A stretch of DNA of 64,000 nt from Promethearchaeota archaeon. GTDB taxonomy: Archaea > Asgardarchaeota > Lokiarchaeia > Sigyniarchaeales > SOKP01. Both the position numbers and the translations under genes were made by a program. The notes under the pieces are model-generated. The model did no database searches and was not told the origin of the DNA. It saw only the letters and a program-made list of their open reading frames with translations. This document shows, piece by piece, positions 32,178 through 44,209 of this stretch (its first letter is position 1; the number at the start of each line of letters is the position of its first letter). The DNA lies in the NCBI GenBank assembly GCA_030599585.1, contig JAUVNS010000005.1, positions 32,001 to 96,000 on the forward strand, written 5' to 3'.

Positions 32178-32858
32178 CTATATCAAGAGTTTTAATCCCT
32201 GTTTTACTTTGTAGCTCCTATTTAATCGATCTACTTCGATGAATCTCTTAATTTCTAGATTATTTAATAAATCTCTCATTTCAACAGGGTTTTTACTAAG
32301 TTTTGCTGCTAATCCCTCAATATCCGTTTCATATGAGCGAAGCACCGTAAGGAGAGATGAGTAATGATCAAAAATTTGATTCACAATATATTTGAGAGCT
32401 TCATTCAAATTCTCTCCCGTCCGTGTACTTGTTGGAAAAATCATTGCGTCGTCTCTTAAATAGTTTTGAGATCTTACTATTTCAGTATGCCTGGCCCCAG
32501 CCTTATCTTGTTTATTTGCCAAATAAACTATAGGAGTGCCAAGCCCTATCGTTTTTCGAAGAGAGTTTAGAATAATTATTGCGTCCTCATCTTTTTCTGG
32601 GTGGGCCGCATCAAATAAAAAAACAAGACCATCAGAACCTCGGACTACTACATCTCTCATAACATTAAACCTTAATAAACCGGGCGTGCCAAACAGAAAG
32701 ACATCAAATCCATTTAATTTTACGCTTCCTAAGTCCATTCCAACGGTGTAATATTTATTATCTCTGGCTTTTGCTTCTACATTTAATGCCTTGTCATCAA
32801 AATATTTAATAAAACTCGATTTACCGCTTTGGGTTGGACCTGATACTGTAATTTTCAT
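32178..32858 (-). CDS. Small GTPase (MglA/CvnD-like) with C-terminal wHTH-like extension
   Basis: GPTQSGKSS, TVGMDLG, FGTPG, ANKQD; C-terminal helix-turn-helix plus beta-hairpin pattern. Confidence 0.82.
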   Translation of the reverse strand: MKITVSGPTQSGKSSFIKYFDDKALNVEAKARDNKYYTVGMDLGSVKLNGFDVFLFGTPGLLRFNVMRDVVVRGSDGLVFLFDAAHPEKDEDAIIILNSLRKTIGLGTPIVYLANKQDKAGARHTEIVRSQNYLRDDAMIFPTSTRTGENLNEALKYIVNQIFDHYSSLLTVLRSYETDIEGLAAKLSKNPVEMRDLLNNLEIKRFIEVDRLNRSYKVKQGLKLLI

Positions 32859-33342: not shown

Positions 33343-36075
33343 ATGAGTAAAAAAAATTCTGTTTTAGTTGTAGGTAGTGGTATAGACGGTATACAAGCTT
33401 CTATCGGTTTAGCAGACTCTGGGTTTAGAGTATATTTAATAGAAAAAGCCCCTCTAACAAGAATCAATACAAATCAAGAAAAAATCTTAGTTAATGATTG
33501 TACTACATGCCTCATTCCCCTAAAATTTGCTGGCCTTAATGGATATGATAATATAGAATTGATAAGAAACGCAGATATCATAAGTTTAGAAGGAGAACCC
33601 GGGAAATTCAAAGCAACCATCTATAAGAAGAGTCTTAGTCAGGTTGAAACTATTAATCCTGAGGATAAAGATTGCATAAAACAGTGTCCGTTTATAGATC
33701 TTTTAAAGAATAGAGATAAAATAAAAGAATTGGATGGCAATAATTCTCAATTTTCAGCAATTGCTCCATTGAAAATTCTAATTGAAAAACGAAGGATTCC
33801 ACCATGTGAAAACGCATGCCCTGCTCATGTTAAGAGTCAGGATTATGTTGATTTAATCATCAAAGGGCAATACCAAGAATCCCTCAATGTCATTCGAGAA
33901 AGATGTCCGCTCCCTTCTGCTATTGGGAGGGTCTGCCCTCATCCATGTGAATCAGCTTGCAATAGAGGGGAAATAGAAGAACCCGTTAATATCTGTGGTT
34001 TAAAGAGGTTTGTTGCTGATTATATAAGAGAAAATTCAAATGAAGAGATTAAATACTTAGAAAATAAGAAAGAAAAAAAGGTAGCTGTTATAGGCTCTGG
34101 TCCTGCAGGTTTAACCGTAGCATATCATCTGGGAAGGTTGGGTTATCCAGTTACTATCTTTGAAAAATCTCCAGTTGCTGGTGGAATGTTAAGATTAGGA
34201 ATCCCAGATTATAGACTACCTCCCGAAATTTTACAAGCAGATATCGATCATATCAAAAGGTATGGTGTTGAAATAAAACTAAACTCTCCTATCGGTCCAC
34301 TTGGACCCACTATTGATGATCTCCTTAAAGATTTCGATGCGGTCTTTATTGGCGTGGGATTACAACTTGCCAGAGAGCTAAAAATTGAAGGAAATGATCT
34401 TGAAAATGTTCTTTACGGAATAGATTTTCTTAAAAAATGTGGTTTGGGGGAAGAGGTTACTGTAGGTAAGAATGTTTTAGTGATTGGAGGTGGAGACGTT
34501 GCTGTCGATGTAGCACGAACTGCATTAAGGAAAGGAGCCGAGGAGGTTCACATGGTCACATTAGAATCCGAAGAGATTCTTCCTGCCCATCCATGGGAAG
34601 TAACAGAGGCAAGGGAAGAAGGAATTGTATTTCACACTAGTTTAGGTCCAGATAAATTTGTAGGGGAAAATGGTAAAGTTATCGGTTTAGAAACAGTTGT
34701 TTGTGAGTCGGTTTACGATGACAAGGGCCGTTTCAATCCTGTATTTGGAGCATGCTCAGAAGATATGCTTAAGTGTGATATGGTCTTTGTTACTATTGGT
34801 CAAGCTGCTGATTTATCGTTTTTAGATAAGGACATAAATGTTGGTAGGGGAATAGAGATAGATCGTGGTAATTTTCAAACCTCAAAAGATGGTGTATTTG
34901 CTGGAGGTGAAGTTGTTACTGGCCCTGGTGCGGCTATTGATGCAATGGCAACTGGTAATAAAGCTGCAATTGTTATTAATCAATACCTAAAAGGAGAGAA
35001 ATTATCATTTGTAGAGACAATTCCGGATTATAATGAGGAAGATTTAGTAACATTTGAGGAGTTGAAAAGAAGGGAACGAATAGAACCAGAACCTCGGAAA
35101 AATCCTGAACACATACCTCCAGATGAAAGAAAAACTAATTTTAAAGAATTTGCACTAGAATGGGATGAGAACCTTGCTATCGCGGAAGCGAATAGGTGCC
35201 TTAGTTGTGGGATTTGTACTGAATGCTCCGAAAATGTGAAAAAATGTGTTGCTAATTCTATTGATAGTAGTCAATTTAGTGAAACGATATCTATTGACAT
35301 TGATAATGTAATTTTAACTCCAGGTGAGTGGTTATCATGTTTTGATCTTCGAAAATTAACTGACTATAGATGGGAAATCGTTAATCCAATTGCACATGTA
35401 GATACTGCATTATGTATTGGTTGTAATAGATGCGCTGATACTTGTAACTATAATTCTGTAGGTGTAAAATATGAAGCTGGCTTAAATGTTTCGAAGGTGG
35501 ACCCTCAGCTATGTAAGGGTTGTGGCGACTGTGTCGCAGAATGTCCTGGAGAAGCCATAACCATGAGCCGTTTTGGTAGGGATCGAATAGAACAAATCAT
35601 CAATTACACTCCACAGGATAAAAAAGATGAACTGCATCCTAAAATCCTAGCGTTTCTATGCAGCTGGTGTAGCTACTCTGGAGCAGATTTAGCAAGTCTA
35701 TACCAATTTCAAAGTTCGCTTAATGTGCAAATTATTCGAGTGATGTGCTCTGCAGCCATAAGTAAAAGTTTTATACTCCAAGCTTTTTTAAATGGAGCTG
35801 ACGGAGTGATAATAGGAGGATGTCATCTTGGTAAATGCCATCATGTTGAGGGTAATTTGGATACTCAGAGGAGATTCAGACAAATTGCCAAAGGATTAAG
35901 AGAAATTGGAATCAATCCTGAACGATACAATTTAGAATGGTTCTCTCCTAGTGAAGAAAAAGTATTTTCAAAAATTATGAATGATTTTATTACTAAAATT
36001 AAAAATTTAGGATCAATTGAAACTGATTTTAAGTCAATAAACACGTCGCCTAAAAGGGCAAGTGCTAAAAATTAA
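33343..36075 (+). CDS. HdrA/HdrL-like fusion: degenerate HdrA N-terminus + GltD/NfnB-like FAD/NAD(P)H domain + 2x[4Fe-4S] ferredoxin + MvhD
   Basis: CENACP, GRVCPHPCE..CNR, GSGPAG, GGML..GIP.YRLP, GGGDVA, EANRCLSCG, CIGCNRC/CKGCGDC..CP, FLCSWCSY.GAD, RVMCS, GADGV..GCH.G.CH. Confidence 0.88.
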   Translation: MSKKNSVLVVGSGIDGIQASIGLADSGFRVYLIEKAPLTRINTNQEKILVNDCTTCLIPLKFAGLNGYDNIELIRNADIISLEGEPGKFKATIYKKSLSQVETINPEDKDCIKQCPFIDLLKNRDKIKELDGNNSQFSAIAPLKILIEKRRIPPCENACPAHVKSQDYVDLIIKGQYQESLNVIRERCPLPSAIGRVCPHPCESACNRGEIEEPVNICGLKRFVADYIRENSNEEIKYLENKKEKKVAVIGSGPAGLTVAYHLGRLGYPVTIFEKSPVAGGMLRLGIPDYRLPPEILQADIDHIKRYGVEIKLNSPIGPLGPTIDDLLKDFDAVFIGVGLQLARELKIEGNDLENVLYGIDFLKKCGLGEEVTVGKNVLVIGGGDVAVDVARTALRKGAEEVHMVTLESEEILPAHPWEVTEAREEGIVFHTSLGPDKFVGENGKVIGLETVVCESVYDDKGRFNPVFGACSEDMLKCDMVFVTIGQAADLSFLDKDINVGRGIEIDRGNFQTSKDGVFAGGEVVTGPGAAIDAMATGNKAAIVINQYLKGEKLSFVETIPDYNEEDLVTFEELKRRERIEPEPRKNPEHIPPDERKTNFKEFALEWDENLAIAEANRCLSCGICTECSENVKKCVANSIDSSQFSETISIDIDNVILTPGEWLSCFDLRKLTDYRWEIVNPIAHVDTALCIGCNRCADTCNYNSVGVKYEAGLNVSKVDPQLCKGCGDCVAECPGEAITMSRFGRDRIEQIINYTPQDKKDELHPKILAFLCSWCSYSGADLASLYQFQSSLNVQIIRVMCSAAISKSFILQAFLNGADGVIIGGCHLGKCHHVEGNLDTQRRFRQIAKGLREIGINPERYNLEWFSPSEEKVFSKIMNDFITKIKNLGSIETDFKSINTSPKRASAKN

Positions 36076-36099
36076 GATATCTAAGAGGGATTAAACAAA

Positions 36100-36795
36100 A
36101 TGATAATTACAGAACTTAAAAATATAGAAGAAATATACGATATGGTAAAACAATACTCAAAAATTTTAGTTGCTGGGTGTGATGGATGTTGCCAACCCCC
36201 AAGATCTATAGCTGAAGCGAAAAATCTTGGTCAGATGCTCGAATTAAAAGCAAAAGTCGAGGGTAAAGAGTTAAAATGGAAAGCTATAACAGTACTTAGG
36301 CAATGTGATGATAGAATTGCAGCAACTACCGTTCAACCTTTTATTGAGCAATACGATGCGATAGTATCGTTGTCCTGTGGATTAGGTGTCGTCATGATGA
36401 ATCGAATATTTGAAAATATTCTTACCTACCCTGCTCAAAATAGTATGTTTGGAGGGGCAGAAAATAATGCAGAAAATAGTTTTGCTGAATATTGTGAAAC
36501 ATGCGGGGAATGTTTACTTGGTGCTACTGGTGGAGTGTGTCCTATGGCCGGATGTGCTAAAAACTTGAGTAATGGACCATGTGGTGGGACCGTTAACGGT
36601 AAATGCGAAGTTGGTGGATATATACACGAATGTGCTTGGATAAAGATATACGAACGCTTAAGAAAATTTAATAGAATGGATCTTTTTACTAAATACCGTC
36701 CACCAAGAAACTACAGACTTTGGTCAAGTCCACGGTTTATTGAGATTAATAAATCTTATACGAACGAAGAAGAACCAATAAAGGAGGAGAAATAG
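36100..36795 (+). CDS. metV: Methylenetetrahydrofolate reductase Fe-S/Zn subunit (MetV)
   Basis: GCDGC, RQC, SCG.GV, CETCGEC.L..TGGVCP...CAK.L.NGPCGG...GKCE, CAW; directly upstream of metF. Confidence 0.88.
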   Translation: MIITELKNIEEIYDMVKQYSKILVAGCDGCCQPPRSIAEAKNLGQMLELKAKVEGKELKWKAITVLRQCDDRIAATTVQPFIEQYDAIVSLSCGLGVVMMNRIFENILTYPAQNSMFGGAENNAENSFAEYCETCGECLLGATGGVCPMAGCAKNLSNGPCGGTVNGKCEVGGYIHECAWIKIYERLRKFNRMDLFTKYRPPRNYRLWSSPRFIEINKSYTNEEEPIKEEK

Positions 36796-36798
36796 AAA

Positions 36799-37737
36799 AT
36801 GGTAAAACGACCAGCATATAGTACTTTAGTAAAAACTATGAGGGAAGGTAAATTTTTATTCACTGGTGAATTAGAGCCAAAAAAGATGATTGATTTGTCT
36901 TCTATCCTACATTCTGCGGAAGAAATGAAAAAAACGGGAAAGATTGTTGCTGCTAATGTGACAGATGGACCACAAGGAGATGCTTACACTTGTTCCATGG
37001 TTCCTTGCTACTTAGTTCAAGAAAAAGTTGGCTTGGAAGCGATTTGGCAGATGACTGTTCGAGATAGAAATCGAATTGCTTTATTTGGCGATATATTAGG
37101 TGGAGCGATACTTGGCCTAAAAAATTTACTTGCTTTAACTGGAGATCATACTGCTCTTGGAGATCATCAAAATGCGAGGCCTGTATTCGATTTAGACTCT
37201 ACACAGTTAATCGATCTCGTTTCTAAAATGGTAGATGACGGTACGGATTTAGAAGGAAATGAAATTGAAGGCGGAAAAATCGAAATGAATGTGGGATGTG
37301 CCGCTAATCCAAATTCAAACCCAAGAGAGCCCGAAATCTTAAAAGTAGGAAGAAAAGTAGAAGTTGGCGCCGATTTCATTCAAACTCAAACATCTTTTGA
37401 TATAGATGATGCCAAAGAATTCCTAAAAGAATTAGAAAAATTCAATGTTCCCGTATTGCTAGGACTATTTCCTATAAAAAATTACGGCATAGCTTGGTAT
37501 TTCAATGAGTATATCCCTGGCGTTTCAGTTCCAAAGGATCTCTTAAAAGCTTTAAAAACTGCAAAAAAGGAGTACAAAGATGATAAAAAAAAGCGGAATG
37601 AAGTTATCGATAAGATTAATATTGACTTTTATGAACCATTTATCAGGGAAATTCAGAAAACCACTAAAGCTGCGGGTATTCATTGCATGGCTGTACATTA
37701 CGAAAGACTATTTGAGCCTTTATTAAAGAACTTCTAA
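36799..37737 (+). CDS. metF: Methylenetetrahydrofolate reductase
   Basis: GELEP, NVTD, RDRNRIAL, LTGDH, GADFIQTQ, GIHCM. Confidence 0.92.
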   Translation: MVKRPAYSTLVKTMREGKFLFTGELEPKKMIDLSSILHSAEEMKKTGKIVAANVTDGPQGDAYTCSMVPCYLVQEKVGLEAIWQMTVRDRNRIALFGDILGGAILGLKNLLALTGDHTALGDHQNARPVFDLDSTQLIDLVSKMVDDGTDLEGNEIEGGKIEMNVGCAANPNSNPREPEILKVGRKVEVGADFIQTQTSFDIDDAKEFLKELEKFNVPVLLGLFPIKNYGIAWYFNEYIPGVSVPKDLLKALKTAKKEYKDDKKKRNEVIDKINIDFYEPFIREIQKTTKAAGIHCMAVHYERLFEPLLKNF

Positions 37738-37839
37738 CAGTAATGAGGAAAGCAATAACATGAAAAAATTTTTCCAAAAAATTTTATTTATTTAATAAAA
37801 CTTACATTTATTCTATTTTTTAACTATCCGCTTAATTTC

Positions 37840-40315: not shown

Positions 40316-41434
40316 TTAAATCAATTCAAGAAATGTTTTCGTTCCAATTTTAAACTTTTCTGTGGGAATATTGTCTCTGACTTTTACTAATTTTATAGCA
40401 TCATTAGGGCAATTAGCTGCGCAAACTCCGCACCCCAAGCAATAATCTTCGTTTATAAACATGTGTTCATCAGAAGAATCTGGTTCGTTAGGAAGTTTAT
40501 GATAAATAACACCCATTGGGCATTTATTTAAACAAATTTCGCATTTTGTACATAAATCATTATTTATTTTAGGTGTATAGTTGGATGCTAAAGTGGCATA
40601 GTATTTATGTTCTTTGGCGGCTACAAGGGCTCCACAATGGCAGCTACAACAATTACATACGAATAAAGTGGATTCAATGCTACTGTCGGCAACACAATGG
40701 TGAATCAATCCTGCCTTCTCTGTTTTTATAAGATATTCAACTGCTTCTTCCTTATTAAGCTTTGGTGCTCCTCGTTCGATACTTGACCGAGCTCCTTCTC
40801 CCGCTAAAAAGCAACCCATCTCTGGTGATGCCACCTGACATGAGTCTCCAGTGTACTCGGCAATTAAGCGGCATTGACATGGAATGACCGTGAAAATGTC
40901 GTAATTATCAATTAATTGAGACATTAATTCATATGGTAAAATTTGAGATTCGACATCAAGAGATTTATCAATTTTAATTAATTTTTCCTTTGCGTTAATC
41001 GGTAACCGCGGTCTAAAAAATTTTAAATTTGTTTCAACTAAGAATGGTGGTAGAAAGCTCTTAAAAAACCATCTGAATATTTCCGCTACTTTTGTTAAAT
41101 TTTCCTCAGAATCGTTCCTCCTAATAAAATATCTTTCAAAGATGCCTGGAAGAATTGGGACTAAACCATACCCATCAACTACTTTAGCAATTGTACCTTT
41201 GGCGTATAATCTATCTAAAATAGATATCAATTCATCTTTTGAAATTCCTGTTGATTCTTCTAAACTTTTAAGCGAAGTATATTTATCAGCGCCTTCAAAC
41301 TTGGAAATAATTTCAATCTCCTCTTCATTCCATAAGACTTTCATCAGTTCAAAGATTTTCTTATGTTTTGGTGCGTATAATGACCCGAGACTTAATTTTT
41401 GTCTTACAATCTCATAATTATCAATTTCCAACAT
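40316..41434 (-). CDS. 4Fe-4S ferredoxin-domain protein with N-terminal wHTH-like region
   Basis: CQCR, CNCCSCHC, CTKCEICLNKCP, CLGCGVCAANCP. Confidence 0.88.
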   Translation of the reverse strand: MLEIDNYEIVRQKLSLGSLYAPKHKKIFELMKVLWNEEEIEIISKFEGADKYTSLKSLEESTGISKDELISILDRLYAKGTIAKVVDGYGLVPILPGIFERYFIRRNDSEENLTKVAEIFRWFFKSFLPPFLVETNLKFFRPRLPINAKEKLIKIDKSLDVESQILPYELMSQLIDNYDIFTVIPCQCRLIAEYTGDSCQVASPEMGCFLAGEGARSSIERGAPKLNKEEAVEYLIKTEKAGLIHHCVADSSIESTLFVCNCCSCHCGALVAAKEHKYYATLASNYTPKINNDLCTKCEICLNKCPMGVIYHKLPNEPDSSDEHMFINEDYCLGCGVCAANCPNDAIKLVKVRDNIPTEKFKIGTKTFLELI

Positions 41435-41448
41435 GATTTTATAAAAGG

Positions 41449-43050
41449 ATGTCTTGTTTAATTATTAATCGAAAATCAAATAGAATGTTTACATCAAAAT
41501 TTTATATCACTATTTCTATTATTCTAACTATATCTTTATTAAATTTTACAGAAAACGAACGGATGAAATTTAACATGGTAAAAGATTTAGAAAAAGACTT
41601 ATCTAAAATAATTAAAAAGGAACGGTTCCAAGGGAAAATGGTCAAGTATGTCAGTGGCGTTGGTAAAGTTCTATTATTCGTACTTCCTATTCTACTATTA
41701 ATAGTAACCATCCTAGCTTTTATATCAGTATTGGACTTCACGTTAAAAATTGTATTCTTCGTAATCTTAGGATTATATGCCTTCAATTCAATAATGCTAT
41801 TTCTAGGAGCAAATTCTACAAATTCTTCTCTTAAATTACGATTAAAAGTTGAAAGAAAAAGAGGAAGGCCAATAGACAGCCTTGATGGTTTTGAAATGTT
41901 ATTTTCTAGCGTGAAAAGAGTTGTTAACTTGCTAAAAATTATTGCCACAATATGTTTTGTAGCACTTATTTTGTTCGTAGTAATGTTATTACAGGGAGAT
42001 TTAAACTTAGGATTCGCAGCAGCAGGATTTGCACTAATTGGGTTAGGTTTAGCAATTATTATTCGTAGCCTAAACCTCAATATTCACGATGTCAACGGTC
42101 TTCAAGATTTTTATAAACCTACTACGCACCAAATTTTCTTAGACAATTTTTTTGGAGAAATATTTTCGGATCATTTAGATCCTATTACATTTCTTAAATG
42201 GGACGAATACTTAGCAGGGATAGATAAACTTTTAACGCCAACCTTTATTCAAAAGGTTAAAGAAGCCGAGGAAGATGAATTACCAATAACTTTTGGAATT
42301 GAATCAATATTATTCTTATACTATTTACAATACCAAGGCGTTTTAACTGAAGAACAATTTACTCGTGAATTAAAAGAAGTAATTAATGTAGATTCTGCTT
42401 CTTTTGATATCAAAAGAGGTTTGTTAATTGATGGTATGTGGTATTTCTCTACTGCTGATATCTATAAATTATTCAATTACATTAAAAAATACACCCCTGG
42501 CTTTTTTAACATTATAGACCGCTTACAACTTGAATTGGCAGATAACATTACCCGACTGTCTAAGGATCCTATTTACATGGATTCTTCAGCCCAAGAAGTA
42601 GTATTTTTGAATGCGGAACTCAATATTTTGATCTTTCTATATAATAATGCCCCAGATGAAAAAAAATACACTATAAAAGTAGTTGCCCCGGGATTTGAAC
42701 CTAGCAAATTGAAGTTAGATATCAAAGTTGAAGGAAGAGGAAGCTTTTTAATTCCAAATAAACCCATTCCTCTAATTTCTTCTGGAAGTACTGATATTGC
42801 AGGTGTATTATCAACAATGTTAGAAAACGGAGATACAACTTGGTTAACTTTAGAACCAAGAGAGACGGGAGAACAGACGATTCAAATTTTCTTGATGTCC
42901 TCTGATGGAACTATTATCGAAGGGAAAACAAGAACTATAAAAGTTACCAAAAACATGAAGACCTATTTAAAAAAACTTACTTCTATTGGCTCTCTACTTG
43001 GTGGGTTGGCCGTTCCATTAGCAAAAATCCTTCCTACTTTACTACAATAA
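41449..43050 (+). CDS. Membrane protein (4 N-terminal TM, large soluble domain, C-terminal hydrophobic tail)
   Basis: Long ORF; true start probably downstream (MKFN/MVKD, about 41563-41575). Confidence 0.72.
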   Translation: MSCLIINRKSNRMFTSKFYITISIILTISLLNFTENERMKFNMVKDLEKDLSKIIKKERFQGKMVKYVSGVGKVLLFVLPILLLIVTILAFISVLDFTLKIVFFVILGLYAFNSIMLFLGANSTNSSLKLRLKVERKRGRPIDSLDGFEMLFSSVKRVVNLLKIIATICFVALILFVVMLLQGDLNLGFAAAGFALIGLGLAIIIRSLNLNIHDVNGLQDFYKPTTHQIFLDNFFGEIFSDHLDPITFLKWDEYLAGIDKLLTPTFIQKVKEAEEDELPITFGIESILFLYYLQYQGVLTEEQFTRELKEVINVDSASFDIKRGLLIDGMWYFSTADIYKLFNYIKKYTPGFFNIIDRLQLELADNITRLSKDPIYMDSSAQEVVFLNAELNILIFLYNNAPDEKKYTIKVVAPGFEPSKLKLDIKVEGRGSFLIPNKPIPLISSGSTDIAGVLSTMLENGDTTWLTLEPRETGEQTIQIFLMSSDGTIIEGKTRTIKVTKNMKTYLKKLTSIGSLLGGLAVPLAKILPTLLQ

Positions 43051-43102
43051 TCATTTATCTCTTTTTTTTATTTTATTTGTGTCTTAAAAGTTAAATGATT
43101 CA

Positions 43103-43894
43103 CTAACTAACTTTTGGGAAGTAATCATTGTCTCTTCCAGGCTTAAAGTGCGATGTAAATTTGCTAAACTCTAAATATGAAAGCCTATCTGTGTTAATTG
43201 TAATGGTCCATAAATTTTTTAAACTCTCGTAATTATCTATTTTTTCAACAGGATTATTCAGTACGTTTAATTCCTCTAATTTCACGAGTTTTTCGAGACC
43301 TTTAACTACTTTAATCTGGTTTTCGTATAAATCCAGTCGTTTAAGGTTCGACAAATCTTGAAGTCCACTCATATCTTGAATCTGATTATTGGATAAGTTT
43401 ATTTGGATAAGCTGCTTCAAATTACTAAGATTTTTTATTTCCTTTATCCTATTACAAGAAAAGTCTAAATCTTCGAGCTTATGTAACGAATCCAGTCCCG
43501 ATATTCCACTGATTTCGCCATTTCTTAAAAATAAATTTCTTAAATTCCCCAATGAATTAAGCCCTTCAATTTTCTTAATACTTTTACACTCGTTTAAGCT
43601 TAGAATCTTTAACTTCTTGAGATTGTCTAAACCTTCAATTTTCCGAATGTTATTTCCATTTAAAATCAAATATTCCAGGTCTATTAGGTTTCCGAGGCCT
43701 GCGATTTTGGTTATTTTATTACTCTTTAAATTCAATGAATTCAGGTTTTTTAGCTTTTCTAGGTTTTTAATCTCTGTGATATCTTCAATCCCTACTCCAG
43801 AAAGATTTAAGTAATCCATGTGGCCTGAATCGCTTAAAATCTCATATTGAACGCCTTTATATTCAACAAATCTAATATCCGACATGATAGACAC
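43103..43894 (-). CDS. Leucine-rich repeat protein (SDS22-like 22-aa repeats)
   Basis: About 9 repeats of LxxLxLxxNxIxxIxGLxxLxx. Confidence 0.92.
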   Translation of the reverse strand: MSIMSDIRFVEYKGVQYEILSDSGHMDYLNLSGVGIEDITEIKNLEKLKNLNSLNLKSNKITKIAGLGNLIDLEYLILNGNNIRKIEGLDNLKKLKILSLNECKSIKKIEGLNSLGNLRNLFLRNGEISGISGLDSLHKLEDLDFSCNRIKEIKNLSNLKQLIQINLSNNQIQDMSGLQDLSNLKRLDLYENQIKVVKGLEKLVKLEELNVLNNPVEKIDNYESLKNLWTITINTDRLSYLEFSKFTSHFKPGRDNDYFPKVS

Positions 43895-44209
43895 GTTAAA
43901 TGGTTTTTACCATCAAAAATATTTATAGATTTCATATTAAAGAATGTTAGGTTTTGATAGGAAAGAATCAAAATAATTTTAAATAAAATACTATATCTAA
44001 TTTAGGACAAATTCAGTTATACATTTTTTAAAAACAAATTCTACCATCTGTAACTACAATAAGCACAAAAAAACATTTTGAAGCAGTTCTTGAAGCGATA
44101 AATCGGATAAATCATCGGTTTCCGTTCTAATCCTAAAAAATTTTCATATTATGGCTTTTTTTAACTCATTAGTAAAAACTTTAAAAATGATAGATGTAGA
44201 ATTGAATTT

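Follow-up and report, generated by a model that had tools for sequence, protein, structure and literature searches.

Introduction

What delivers electrons to the methylene-tetrahydropterin reductase MetVF when the HdrA-derived protein encoded next to it lacks the flavin core of HdrA? The question is raised by a locus in a 64,000-nucleotide stretch of DNA from a Promethearchaeota archaeon (assembly GCA_030599585.1, contig JAUVNS010000005.1, positions 32,001 to 96,000), here called the window, whose numbering is used below. Three open reading frames (ORFs) follow one another on the + strand at 33343-36075 (910 aa), 36100-36795 (231 aa) and 36799-37737 (312 aa), the first encoding a fusion protein and the other two MetV and MetF. 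The physiological donor of MetVF-type reductases and energy conservation at that step are an open question in Wood-Ljungdahl bioenergetics (PMC8760232, PMC9430772). Four classes of methylenetetrahydrofolate reductase (MTHFR) have been recognised, namely MetF, MetVF, MetVF-RnfC2 and the Hdr-type (PMC9430772), and the architecture of the 910-aa protein is not among them. Alignments and trees indicate that this protein is a chimera, in which the front part of a 'short HdrL' has been joined to a resident, MetVF-linked ferredoxin-MvhD end. On balance, we lean towards reading the locus as a MetVF operon whose electron-input subunit was rebuilt by domain replacement and which now works as a linear path fed by NADH.

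The operon and the domains of the fusion protein

The ORF coordinates agree with the tight spacing reported in the initial annotation, with 24 bp between the fusion gene and metV and 3 bp between metV and metF. MetV, the Fe-S/Zn subunit of MetVF, is recognised by PF12225 (E = 9.3e-30) and the methylene-tetrahydropterin reductase MetF by PF02219 (E = 1.4e-30), and we predict that the three genes form an operon for a MetVF-type methylene-tetrahydrofolate (H4F)/tetrahydromethanopterin (H4MPT) reductase. In the translated 910-aa protein, Pfam finds Fer4_20 at residues 153-231, Pyr_redox_2 at 245-538, a 4Fe-4S dicluster domain at 684-741 and FlpD/MvhD at 768-890 (E = 1.7e-43). The HdrA2-type NCBIfam models are matched in part only, and residues 138-655 give a near-cut-off match to a GltD-like 'NAD(P)-binding protein' model.

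Domain mapping against HdrA, HdrL, NfnB and MvhD, a check proposed in the initial annotation, could assign the stub, the insert, the ferredoxin domain and MvhD. An N-terminal HdrA stub (residues 1-98; 33343-33636), aligned to HdrA 146-243 (5ODC/8RVV), is followed by a degenerate remnant of the first Cys motif of the ferredoxin domain inserted in HdrA (residues 99-143; 33637-33771, from alignments) and by an NfnB/GltD-like module (residues 144-555; 33772-35007). An extension (35008-35394, also delimited by alignments) then holds an RCLSCGICTEC..C motif, the strand that returns into HdrA (IDNVILTPGE) and WLSCFDLRKLTDYRWEIVNPIA. The chain ends with a 2x[4Fe-4S] ferredoxin domain with eight Cys (residues 685-745; 35395-35577; Pfam Fer4_7/Fer4_21) and the fused [2Fe-2S] domain of MvhD (residues 766-893; 35638-36021). 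All of these features lie on the + strand. The motifs previously quoted for the protein are present, GSGIDG at residues 11-16, NDCTTC at 51-56, VTLES at 405-409 and DNVILTPG at 654-661.

The HdrA flavin core is missing

Aligned to HdrA of known structure (5ODC chain A), residues 7-117 of the protein match HdrA 146-258 and residues 679-745, with eight Cys, match HdrA 572-638. Between them, residues 618-661 align weakly to HdrA 292-335, the second Cys motif of the inserted ferredoxin domain together with the strand that returns into the flavin domain. Since VILTPGE is followed after only 22 residues by the ferredoxin domain at the C-terminal end, HdrA 350-571 or thereabouts (about 220 residues), the second half of the thioredoxin-reductase-like domain, has no counterpart. 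The abrupt passage from DNVILTPG to the terminal 2x[4Fe-4S] domain and MvhD and the deletion of the flavin core, both noticed at first reading, are thus real, and the alignment contains no intact core. Full-length HdrL proteins are marked by a complete core and a length of about 1470-1650 aa, as in the relative P0021 (1495 aa) and the family's own HdrL (~1650 aa); the protein here has 910 aa and no core.

The flavin-contact segment tells the same story. In a set of 74 aligned sequences, IGG.M..LDKTFPT.DC is strictly kept in all 40 full-length HdrA/HdrL proteins (>=1150 aa), whereas GG and LDKTFPT are lost in all 34 short forms (759-785 or 910 aa); the initial annotation had already noted the absence of this segment from the 910-aa protein, which reads LTR--INTNQEKILVNDC. 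The deletion of the core is accompanied by the decay of the motif that contacts the flavin, which at the level of sequence is the best argument for the loss of the HdrA flavin site. In the first inserted-ferredoxin motif, two or three of the original four Cys have disappeared from the short forms as well (only C111 and C115 are left in the 910-aa protein); GxGxxG, the DCxxC pair and the acidic residue that follows strand 2 are retained. The stub aligns to HdrA 146-180 along GSGIDG...LIEK and keeps the N-terminal GxGxxG beta-alpha-beta unit with E34, plus its DCxxC pair. The NfnB module is preceded by what is left of Cys motif 1 (residues 105-117) and followed by Cys motif 2 (residues 619-635), the latter with C619, C622, C625, C628 and C635.

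Within the 910-aa clade, mean identity reaches 93% in the NfnB core and 85% in the stub; it drops to 67% in the degenerate linker (residues 99-143), the least conserved segment, which is down to 25% in the short-HdrL family. In the AlphaFold2 model the predicted local distance difference test (pLDDT) gives 60-76 for the stub, below 50 for residues 39-61 and 99-143, and above 90 for the NfnB module; the model retained was computed from the 74-sequence alignment (pLDDT 78.7), another from a 20-sequence alignment (53.5) being discarded. The VIA structural search was dominated by the NfnB module and is no test of the stub fold. Its conservation suggests that the stub is under constraint and not junk.

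The NfnB/GltD-like module and its nucleotide site

The module is well defined by Fer4_20 (PF14691, 2.9e-19), with seven invariant Cys, and Pyr_redox_2 (PF07992, 1e-32), with the flavin adenine dinucleotide (FAD) and NAD(P)H Rossmann motifs; all its Fe-S Cys and both dinucleotide motifs are intact. Its sequence matches in the Protein Data Bank (PDB) are 9bov, 9n5u, 8oh5, 4ylf and 5jca (37-42% identity). In both sequence and structure it comes closest to subunits of the bifurcating NfnABC/StnABC complexes, namely to the GltD-like part of NfnA/StnC (9BOV, 8OH5, 9N5U/V; Z 47-50); NfnI-L, Xfn and NfnB (Z 38-39) follow among structures. Single-module matches (9n5v, 9n5u, 5jfc, 5jca, 5vj7, 4ylf) superpose with a root-mean-square deviation of about 2 Å over 390-475 residues; the two top structural rows (9bov, 8oh5) align 526 residues at 7.1 Å.

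The nucleotide site departs from that of these homologues. VTLES faces V/Y-R-R-T/S in all five of the closest solved structures (9bov, 8oh5, 9n5u, 4ylf, 5jca), as the initial annotation had anticipated, so that TLE at residues 406-408 replaces YRR, the 2'-phosphate/NADPH motif after the second Rossmann strand. The variant, LE[SA]....PAH.WE, is found in the Asgard short forms, in two aligned fusions from Actinomycetota (L116, L121) and in one Desulfotomaculia HdrL, and YRR is kept in other HdrL, in the short-HdrL member P0033, in the Thermoplasmatota fusion P0069 and in a GltD-like paralogue of the same genome (C26:89064). An acidic residue at this position would fit NADH as the donor. The genome also contains, beyond the window, a 930-aa frame (C26:84030-86477) with a GltD/NfnB-like module (38% identity to residues 52-643 of the fusion) and two CCG (HdrB-type) domains, which looks like an NfnB-HdrB-type fusion.

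Chimeric origin of the 910-aa protein

The two ends of the protein have different relatives, the named homologues being metagenome-assembled genomes (MAGs) of Promethearchaeota and Helarchaeota. Residues 1-682 belong to a 'short HdrL' family (760-785 aa; stub, NfnB module and ferredoxin domain) at 52-62% identity, and in the tree the NfnB module nests within the short-HdrL clade next to a Helarchaeota member, with a Shimodaira-Hasegawa-like approximate likelihood ratio test (SH-aLRT) support of 99. Homology to the tandem-HdrA-MvhD proteins of relatives begins exactly at residue 683, and residues 683-900 align without gaps to their residues 931-1148 at 59% identity. For the ferredoxin domain, identity is 66-72% with the MetVF-linked proteins of the nearest relatives and 33-44% with short-HdrL ferredoxin domains. 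MvhD (PF02662 matched over 1-123 of 123 positions; 5odc_D residues 3-132, E = 1.3e-37; Cys at 773, 776, 801, 827 and 832) completes a ferredoxin-MvhD part that groups with the MetVF-linked clade (support 99/99) on a long branch, in a tree incongruent with that of the NfnB module. The chimera junction coincides with the site where short HdrL lost the HdrA core, both lying at the end of the extension, at about residues 680-685. The HdrA part had been described as eroded. It is truly reduced in its core and motif, but the protein did not come about by mere decay at this locus: a short HdrL of a family that already existed was joined to a resident ferredoxin-MvhD.

What preceded the chimera can be read from the same locus in relatives. 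Upstream of MetV, which is paired with MetF and 67-91% identical to its orthologues across the family, relatives encode a 1150-1170-aa tandem HdrA with a ferredoxin domain and a fused MvhD, and the flanks held in common include phosphoenolpyruvate carboxykinase (PEPCK), GTPase and metallo-beta-lactamase (MBL) genes, among others. A gap of ~1.5 kb separates the tandem-HdrA-MvhD gene from metV in seven of the 12 same-family loci fetched, where Pfam confirms HdrC (178 aa) and HdrB (295 aa, two CCG domains) in one and ORFs of matching size occur in two more; in the five closest loci the two genes abut directly. In the closest relatives (L077 16760-19949 and L079 992-4730), three more Hdr-type genes lie upstream of the tandem-HdrA-MvhD gene, for a 431-aa HdrA N-terminal-like, a 555-aa HdrA-like and a 251-256-aa MvhD-domain protein; the window is without them. 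The synteny survey suggested in the initial annotation was extended to 121 family genomes, of which about 100 have the long type (1150-1190 aa) as best match and only two the 910-aa form, the genome of the window and a second at 96% identity. This distribution marks the form as derived and recent, the property of one small lineage among Loki-type Asgard archaea. Eight sequence clusters of orthologues keep the frame intact, all at 910 aa (86-96% identity), with catalytic domains 90-93% identical, lower values in linkers only, and every domain including the stub conserved.

No donor of the ferredoxin-MvhD part above 60% identity was found in the 121 family genomes. The 59% identity to relatives compares with 86% between two relatives whose MetV differ as much, and this excess divergence suggests either adaptation after the swap or an unsampled donor. 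For the front part, the full-length P0021, a close relative of the short form with its motifs intact, points to a P0021-like HdrL as the probable ancestor. The full-length HdrL closest to the NfnB module of the fusion (67%), at L101 7001-7600 (= G156:C11), shifts frame between stub and insert, either a frameshift or an assembly error. Elsewhere, three other Asgard MAGs (L098 5724-14489, L099 and L108) share a conserved gene order in which an HdrD-like protein (Fer4_17+CCG) is followed by short HdrL (782 aa), MvhD, tandem HdrA (about 1025 aa; 1028 aa), another MvhD and an FrhB-like protein; these operons do not adjoin metVF and may encode an F420- or NAD(P)H-linked Asgard Hdr complex.

We considered other origins. 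The protein might have been the genus's own ~1650-aa HdrL-MvhD with an internal deletion, but such HdrL genes do not adjoin metVF, their NfnB part is about 50% identical compared with 61-70% for short HdrL, and the C-terminal tree puts the protein with the MetVF-linked clade, not the HdrL clade. Nor was MvhD inherited along with the short HdrL, since the separate MvhD encoded downstream of it in L098, L099 and L108 is 36-40% identical and placed elsewhere in the tree. The NCBIfam family NF045663 (759-aa dicluster/pyridine-nucleotide oxidoreductase) was tried as a home for short HdrL and rejected, since it scored only 194, where the cut-off is 530, and was covered in part.

A single MetVF in the genome

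The source genome (4.85 Mb, 52 contigs) encodes CdhC and two Ftr copies, and exactly one MetF and one MetV. Most relatives have a second pair, MetV2-MetF2, ~10 kb downstream, after a conserved 533-aa gene. In the window the 533-aa gene (41449-43050) is followed by a leucine-rich-repeat (LRR) gene (43103-43894, - strand; region 43051-44209), and no trace of MetV2 or MetF2 was found in the whole genome; the 96%-identical MAG E44_bin85 retains a 67-aa C-terminal fragment of MetF2 (L097 15738-15935). The second MetVF has thus been lost here. As there is no second MetVF, and no Mer above cut-off in the genome, the MetF of the locus is the only candidate reductase of the genome, which gives the system its relevance for the methylene/methyl step in Asgard archaea. 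Because close relatives carry the Hdr-type partner and a second MetVF, the link of the C1 branch with the pools of NADH and ferredoxin, and the direction that this branch can take, probably vary among sister lineages.

The genome is otherwise rich in Hdr-type genes, with 37 CCG-domain matches, about 20 CCG-domain proteins and many HdrA/MvhD paralogues. Among the latter, some are matched across one or two in-frame TGA codons (C50:64999-65394, C26:75997-76440, C24:310464-310901, C24:250912-251292), as would fit selenocysteine-containing Hdr/Mvh proteins, which have been reported in Asgard archaea (PMC11227280).

Recurrence of the design beside MetVF

Related arrangements occur in other lineages. 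In Desulfallaceae (Desulfoscipio, Desulfotruncus, Desulfallas) a 1473-aa HdrL is followed by MvhD, MetV and MetF, and a Deltaproteobacteria MAG (L154) has the same domain set with an extra MvhD-like match between MetV and MetF. In Desulfoscipio, metF is followed by two ORFs that were considered as hdrC/hdrB; Pfam identifies them as an isochorismatase and a PHP-domain protein. Actinomycetota MAGs (L116, L121, L177-L194) encode a 640-710-aa fusion of Fer4_20, Pyr_redox_2, 2xFer4 and FlpD, with no HdrA stub, directly before MetV-MetF; in a 201-genome sample MetV-MetF lies downstream at 16 of 18 such loci, with one at a contig edge and one without it. A cluster of 152 bacterial members in the ESM Atlas consists of 670-aa Pyr_redox_2+FlpD proteins. 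In three genomes with an NfnB-type input beside MetVF, the linked MetF is the only one.

The NfnB module of the Actinomycetota fusions branches in a different clade, so that their assembly is independent of the Asgard one. The design is not unique to the window, since the short form of stub, NfnB module and ferredoxin domain is widespread in Asgard archaea and GltD-ferredoxin-MvhD fusions with MetVF are common in Actinomycetota. The initial annotation had proposed an undescribed MTHFR architecture. This holds in that our full-text literature search returned no description of a core-less HdrA/NfnB fusion or of a GltD-ferredoxin-MvhD partner of MetVF; it does not hold for the design at large, given these relatives. 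There is apparently a wider, undescribed class of GltD/NfnB-type partners of MetVF.

A proposed path from NADH to the methylene group

According to the reading we favour, the ancestral locus would have encoded a ~1150-aa tandem-HdrA-MvhD fusion, mostly together with HdrC and HdrB as in the Moorella-type arrangement. Everything upstream of the C-terminal ferredoxin domain would have been replaced by the front part of a short HdrL, that is, a core-less HdrA stub with a complete NfnB/GltD-like FAD/NAD(P)H module inserted, and HdrC and HdrB would have gone. NADH, for which TLE in place of the NADPH-type YRR argues, would reduce the FAD of the module; single electrons would then pass through the module's two [4Fe-4S] clusters and the cluster of the retained Cys motif, onward to MvhD and its [2Fe-2S] by way of the pair of clusters in the ferredoxin domain, and finally through the clusters of MetV to the MetF flavin and the methylene group. 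The retained ferredoxin-MvhD part is the likely docking adaptor to MetV in a complex that would presumably run towards methylene reduction, with H4F or H4MPT as its pterin. The potential of the H4MPT couple is about -320 mV, so that NADH-linked reduction would be near equilibrium and reversible with this pterin. Electron transfer from NADH (-320 mV) to methylene-H4F (-200 mV) is exergonic by 23 kJ/mol and needs no coupling (PMC9430772).

The initial annotation had concluded from the loss of the HdrA core that the protein is a non-bifurcating wire. This does not follow, because the inserted module is a homologue of NfnB (about 40% identical to 4ylf_B), whose FAD is thought to be the bifurcating flavin of NfnAB (as quoted in PMC9012536). 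The same complex might thus bifurcate or confurcate at the NfnB-like FAD, a possibility that we hold tentatively: two NAD(P)H would reduce methylene-H4F through the ferredoxin domain, MvhD, MetV and MetF, and ferredoxin through the module's two [4Fe-4S] clusters, or, in reverse, methyl-group oxidation and reduced ferredoxin would together reduce NAD+. The lineage would then have swapped the HdrA flavin for an NfnB-type one and not given up coupling, in keeping with the top structural matches in NfnABC/StnABC, with Fe-S sites in excess of what a simple wire requires and with a partner at the same locus of relatives that is presumably a bifurcating Hdr-type one. However, Pfam finds no ferredoxin gene and no NuoEF-like partner in the operon and, among neighbouring genes, no NfnA/PyrK-like or GltB partner (the rest of the genome was not searched for one); the YRR of the bifurcating Nfn enzymes is absent; the reduction of methylene-H4F by NADH requires no coupling; and the GltD homologues of glutamate synthase and dihydropyrimidine dehydrogenase have the same fold without bifurcation. 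The sequence data argue neither for nor against bifurcation at this flavin, which is the main rival of the linear path.

Two further explanations have less in their favour. The fusion could still belong to an Hdr-type complex, drawing on HdrA, HdrB/C or HdrD-like proteins from other loci and coupling MetVF to a disulfide or another acceptor, as the company of short HdrL in the Asgard operons (HdrD-like, MvhD, tandem HdrA, FrhB-like) and the many CCG-domain matches and HdrA/MvhD paralogues of the genome might suggest. Of the ten genes scanned around the operon, Pfam assigns none to the CCG-domain (HdrB) or HdrC-like type, in agreement with the initial annotation, and none of the genes required lies within about 55 kb, the distance of the nearest CCG match, beyond the window; moreover, the closest relatives already do without hdrCB in the cluster while keeping the tandem HdrA, and the Actinomycetota clusters show no HdrA-like match in the ~1.5 kb fetched per side, which leaves this explanation improbable. 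It is still harder to believe that the fusion is a decaying by-product of rearrangement and that, as in Clostridium ljungdahlii, MetVF takes electrons from ferredoxin with no further partner. The MetVF enzymes of several acetogens do show such activity in vitro, by themselves and with reduced ferredoxin (PMC8760232, PMC9430772), and the long branch of the ferredoxin-MvhD part would be compatible with decay, but the 910-aa frame is intact in all eight clusters, with its catalytic domains highly conserved, the Fe-S Cys and both dinucleotide motifs of the module are in place, and the genes are tightly spaced, with a GAGGG Shine-Dalgarno-like element (36085-36089, + strand, read from the sequence) within the 24-bp spacer, 10 nt before the metV ATG.

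Several points also weigh against the linear, NADH-fed path itself. The NfnB-type FAD and the best structural matches belong to bifurcating complexes, so that a linear wire is one reading only of the module. Leu-Glu in place of Arg-Arg would fit NADH, yet the pair is uncharacterised in this family. The binding of the fusion to MetVF is suggested by gene order and ancestry, and the partner contacts of the ferredoxin-MvhD part may have changed, given that it is only 59% identical to that of relatives whose MetV/MetF are 88-91% identical. CCG-domain proteins and HdrA/MvhD paralogues of the genome could act in trans, and the binding of some nucleotide by the stub is conceivable, since GxGxxG and the acidic residue are retained under constraint.

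A broader proposal is that methylene-tetrahydropterin reductases include a fifth class, so far unrecognised, of which the window holds the archaeal case. Its members would have MetVF fed by a GltD/NfnB-type flavoprotein fused to ferredoxin-MvhD, and the class would have two independent origins, one in Actinomycetota/Chloroflexota and one in Asgard archaea, where an Hdr-type partner had its domains replaced. The NfnB-type flavin would couple NADH oxidation to methylene and ferredoxin reduction. We consider this doubtful; if true, the methyl branch would have the coupling site that has long been sought, and would have it without HdrA.

Surroundings of the operon

The neighbours of the locus include thermosome, GTP-PEPCK, Ras/Arf-like GTPase and LRR protein genes. 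A T-rich stretch 3' of metF (37765-37810, + strand), read from the sequence, is a likely archaeal transcription stop. Upstream, a 226-aa Ras/Arf-like small GTPase (32178-32858, - strand) is divergent from the operon, and its position is kept in relatives, with 49-75% identity in the four whose fetched sequence reaches this gene and 95% in L097, a near-identical MAG. Near the C1 genes, a 372-aa protein (40316-41434, - strand) combines a winged-helix-like match (Sulfolobus_pRN) at its N-terminus with a 2x[4Fe-4S] domain at its C-terminus; conserved at 96% in L097, it may be a redox-sensing regulator.

Comparison with known systems

To our knowledge, the Hdr-type MTHFR complex has resisted purification. 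The locus offers a compact three-gene system for asking what feeds electrons to MetVF; as electrons have no evident flavin-based way in other than the NAD(P)H/FAD module, one could measure directly the donor, the stoichiometry and any coupling to ferredoxin. It is also a clean natural example of modular evolution, in which the docking end (ferredoxin-MvhD) was kept and the input end swapped.

With the Hdr-type MTHFR of Moorella thermoacetica and Sporomusa ovata (HdrCBA-MvhD-MetVF; Mock et al. 2014, PMC9430772), the locus shares a MetV-MetF core, an MvhD adaptor and an HdrA-derived partner in one cluster. It differs in having no HdrA FAD core and no HdrB/HdrC, in its fused MvhD, and in the NfnB-like NAD(P)H/FAD module as entry point. 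Clusters of hdrA, mvhD and metVF are known from several genome papers (PMC5736913, PMC7325909, PMC9586279). HdrL, defined in Desulfobacterium autotrophicum (PMC2702500), and the HdrA-NfnB fusions of ANME-1 (HdrA9-11), for which a speculative link to MetF-derived NADPH has been drawn (PMC9012536), carry a ~500-aa NfnB-like insert at the same site in the HdrA inserted ferredoxin domain, with MvhD adjacent or fused. In HdrL (about 1475-1650 aa) the core and IGG..LDKTFPT are intact, whereas the 910-aa protein and the 760-785-aa short HdrL are without the core; we found no discussion in PMC2702500 or PMC9012536 of HdrL adjacent to metVF, as seen in Desulfallaceae.

NfnB of NfnAB and the GltD-like module of NfnABC/StnABC (4YLF, 5JCA, 9BOV, 8OH5, 9N5U) have the same Fer4_20 domain and FAD/NAD(P)H fold. 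Here the operon encodes no NfnA/PyrK-like or NuoEF-like partner, TLE stands for YRR, and the remnant of HdrA surrounds the module, which is wired to MvhD. In the NADH-dependent heterotrimer MetVF-RnfC2 of Acetobacterium woodii, as cited in PMC9430772, a third subunit likewise supplies a MetVF that is not competent for NADH with a nucleotide-binding flavin and Fe-S clusters, but the input subunit is unrelated, an RnfC-like FMN (flavin mononucleotide) protein there and a chimera of HdrA stub, NfnB module, ferredoxin and MvhD here. The uncharacterised GltD-ferredoxin-MvhD-like fusions of Actinomycetota are similar in being a single chain with the same domain types directly before MetV-MetF and in the LE[AS]..PAH.WE variant; they differ in their length (640-710 aa), the lack of an HdrA stub and a very divergent MvhD part (24-31% identity). 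Set beside these systems, the locus is best described as a chimeric MetVF-partner system that is specific to its lineage and assembled from modules already known.

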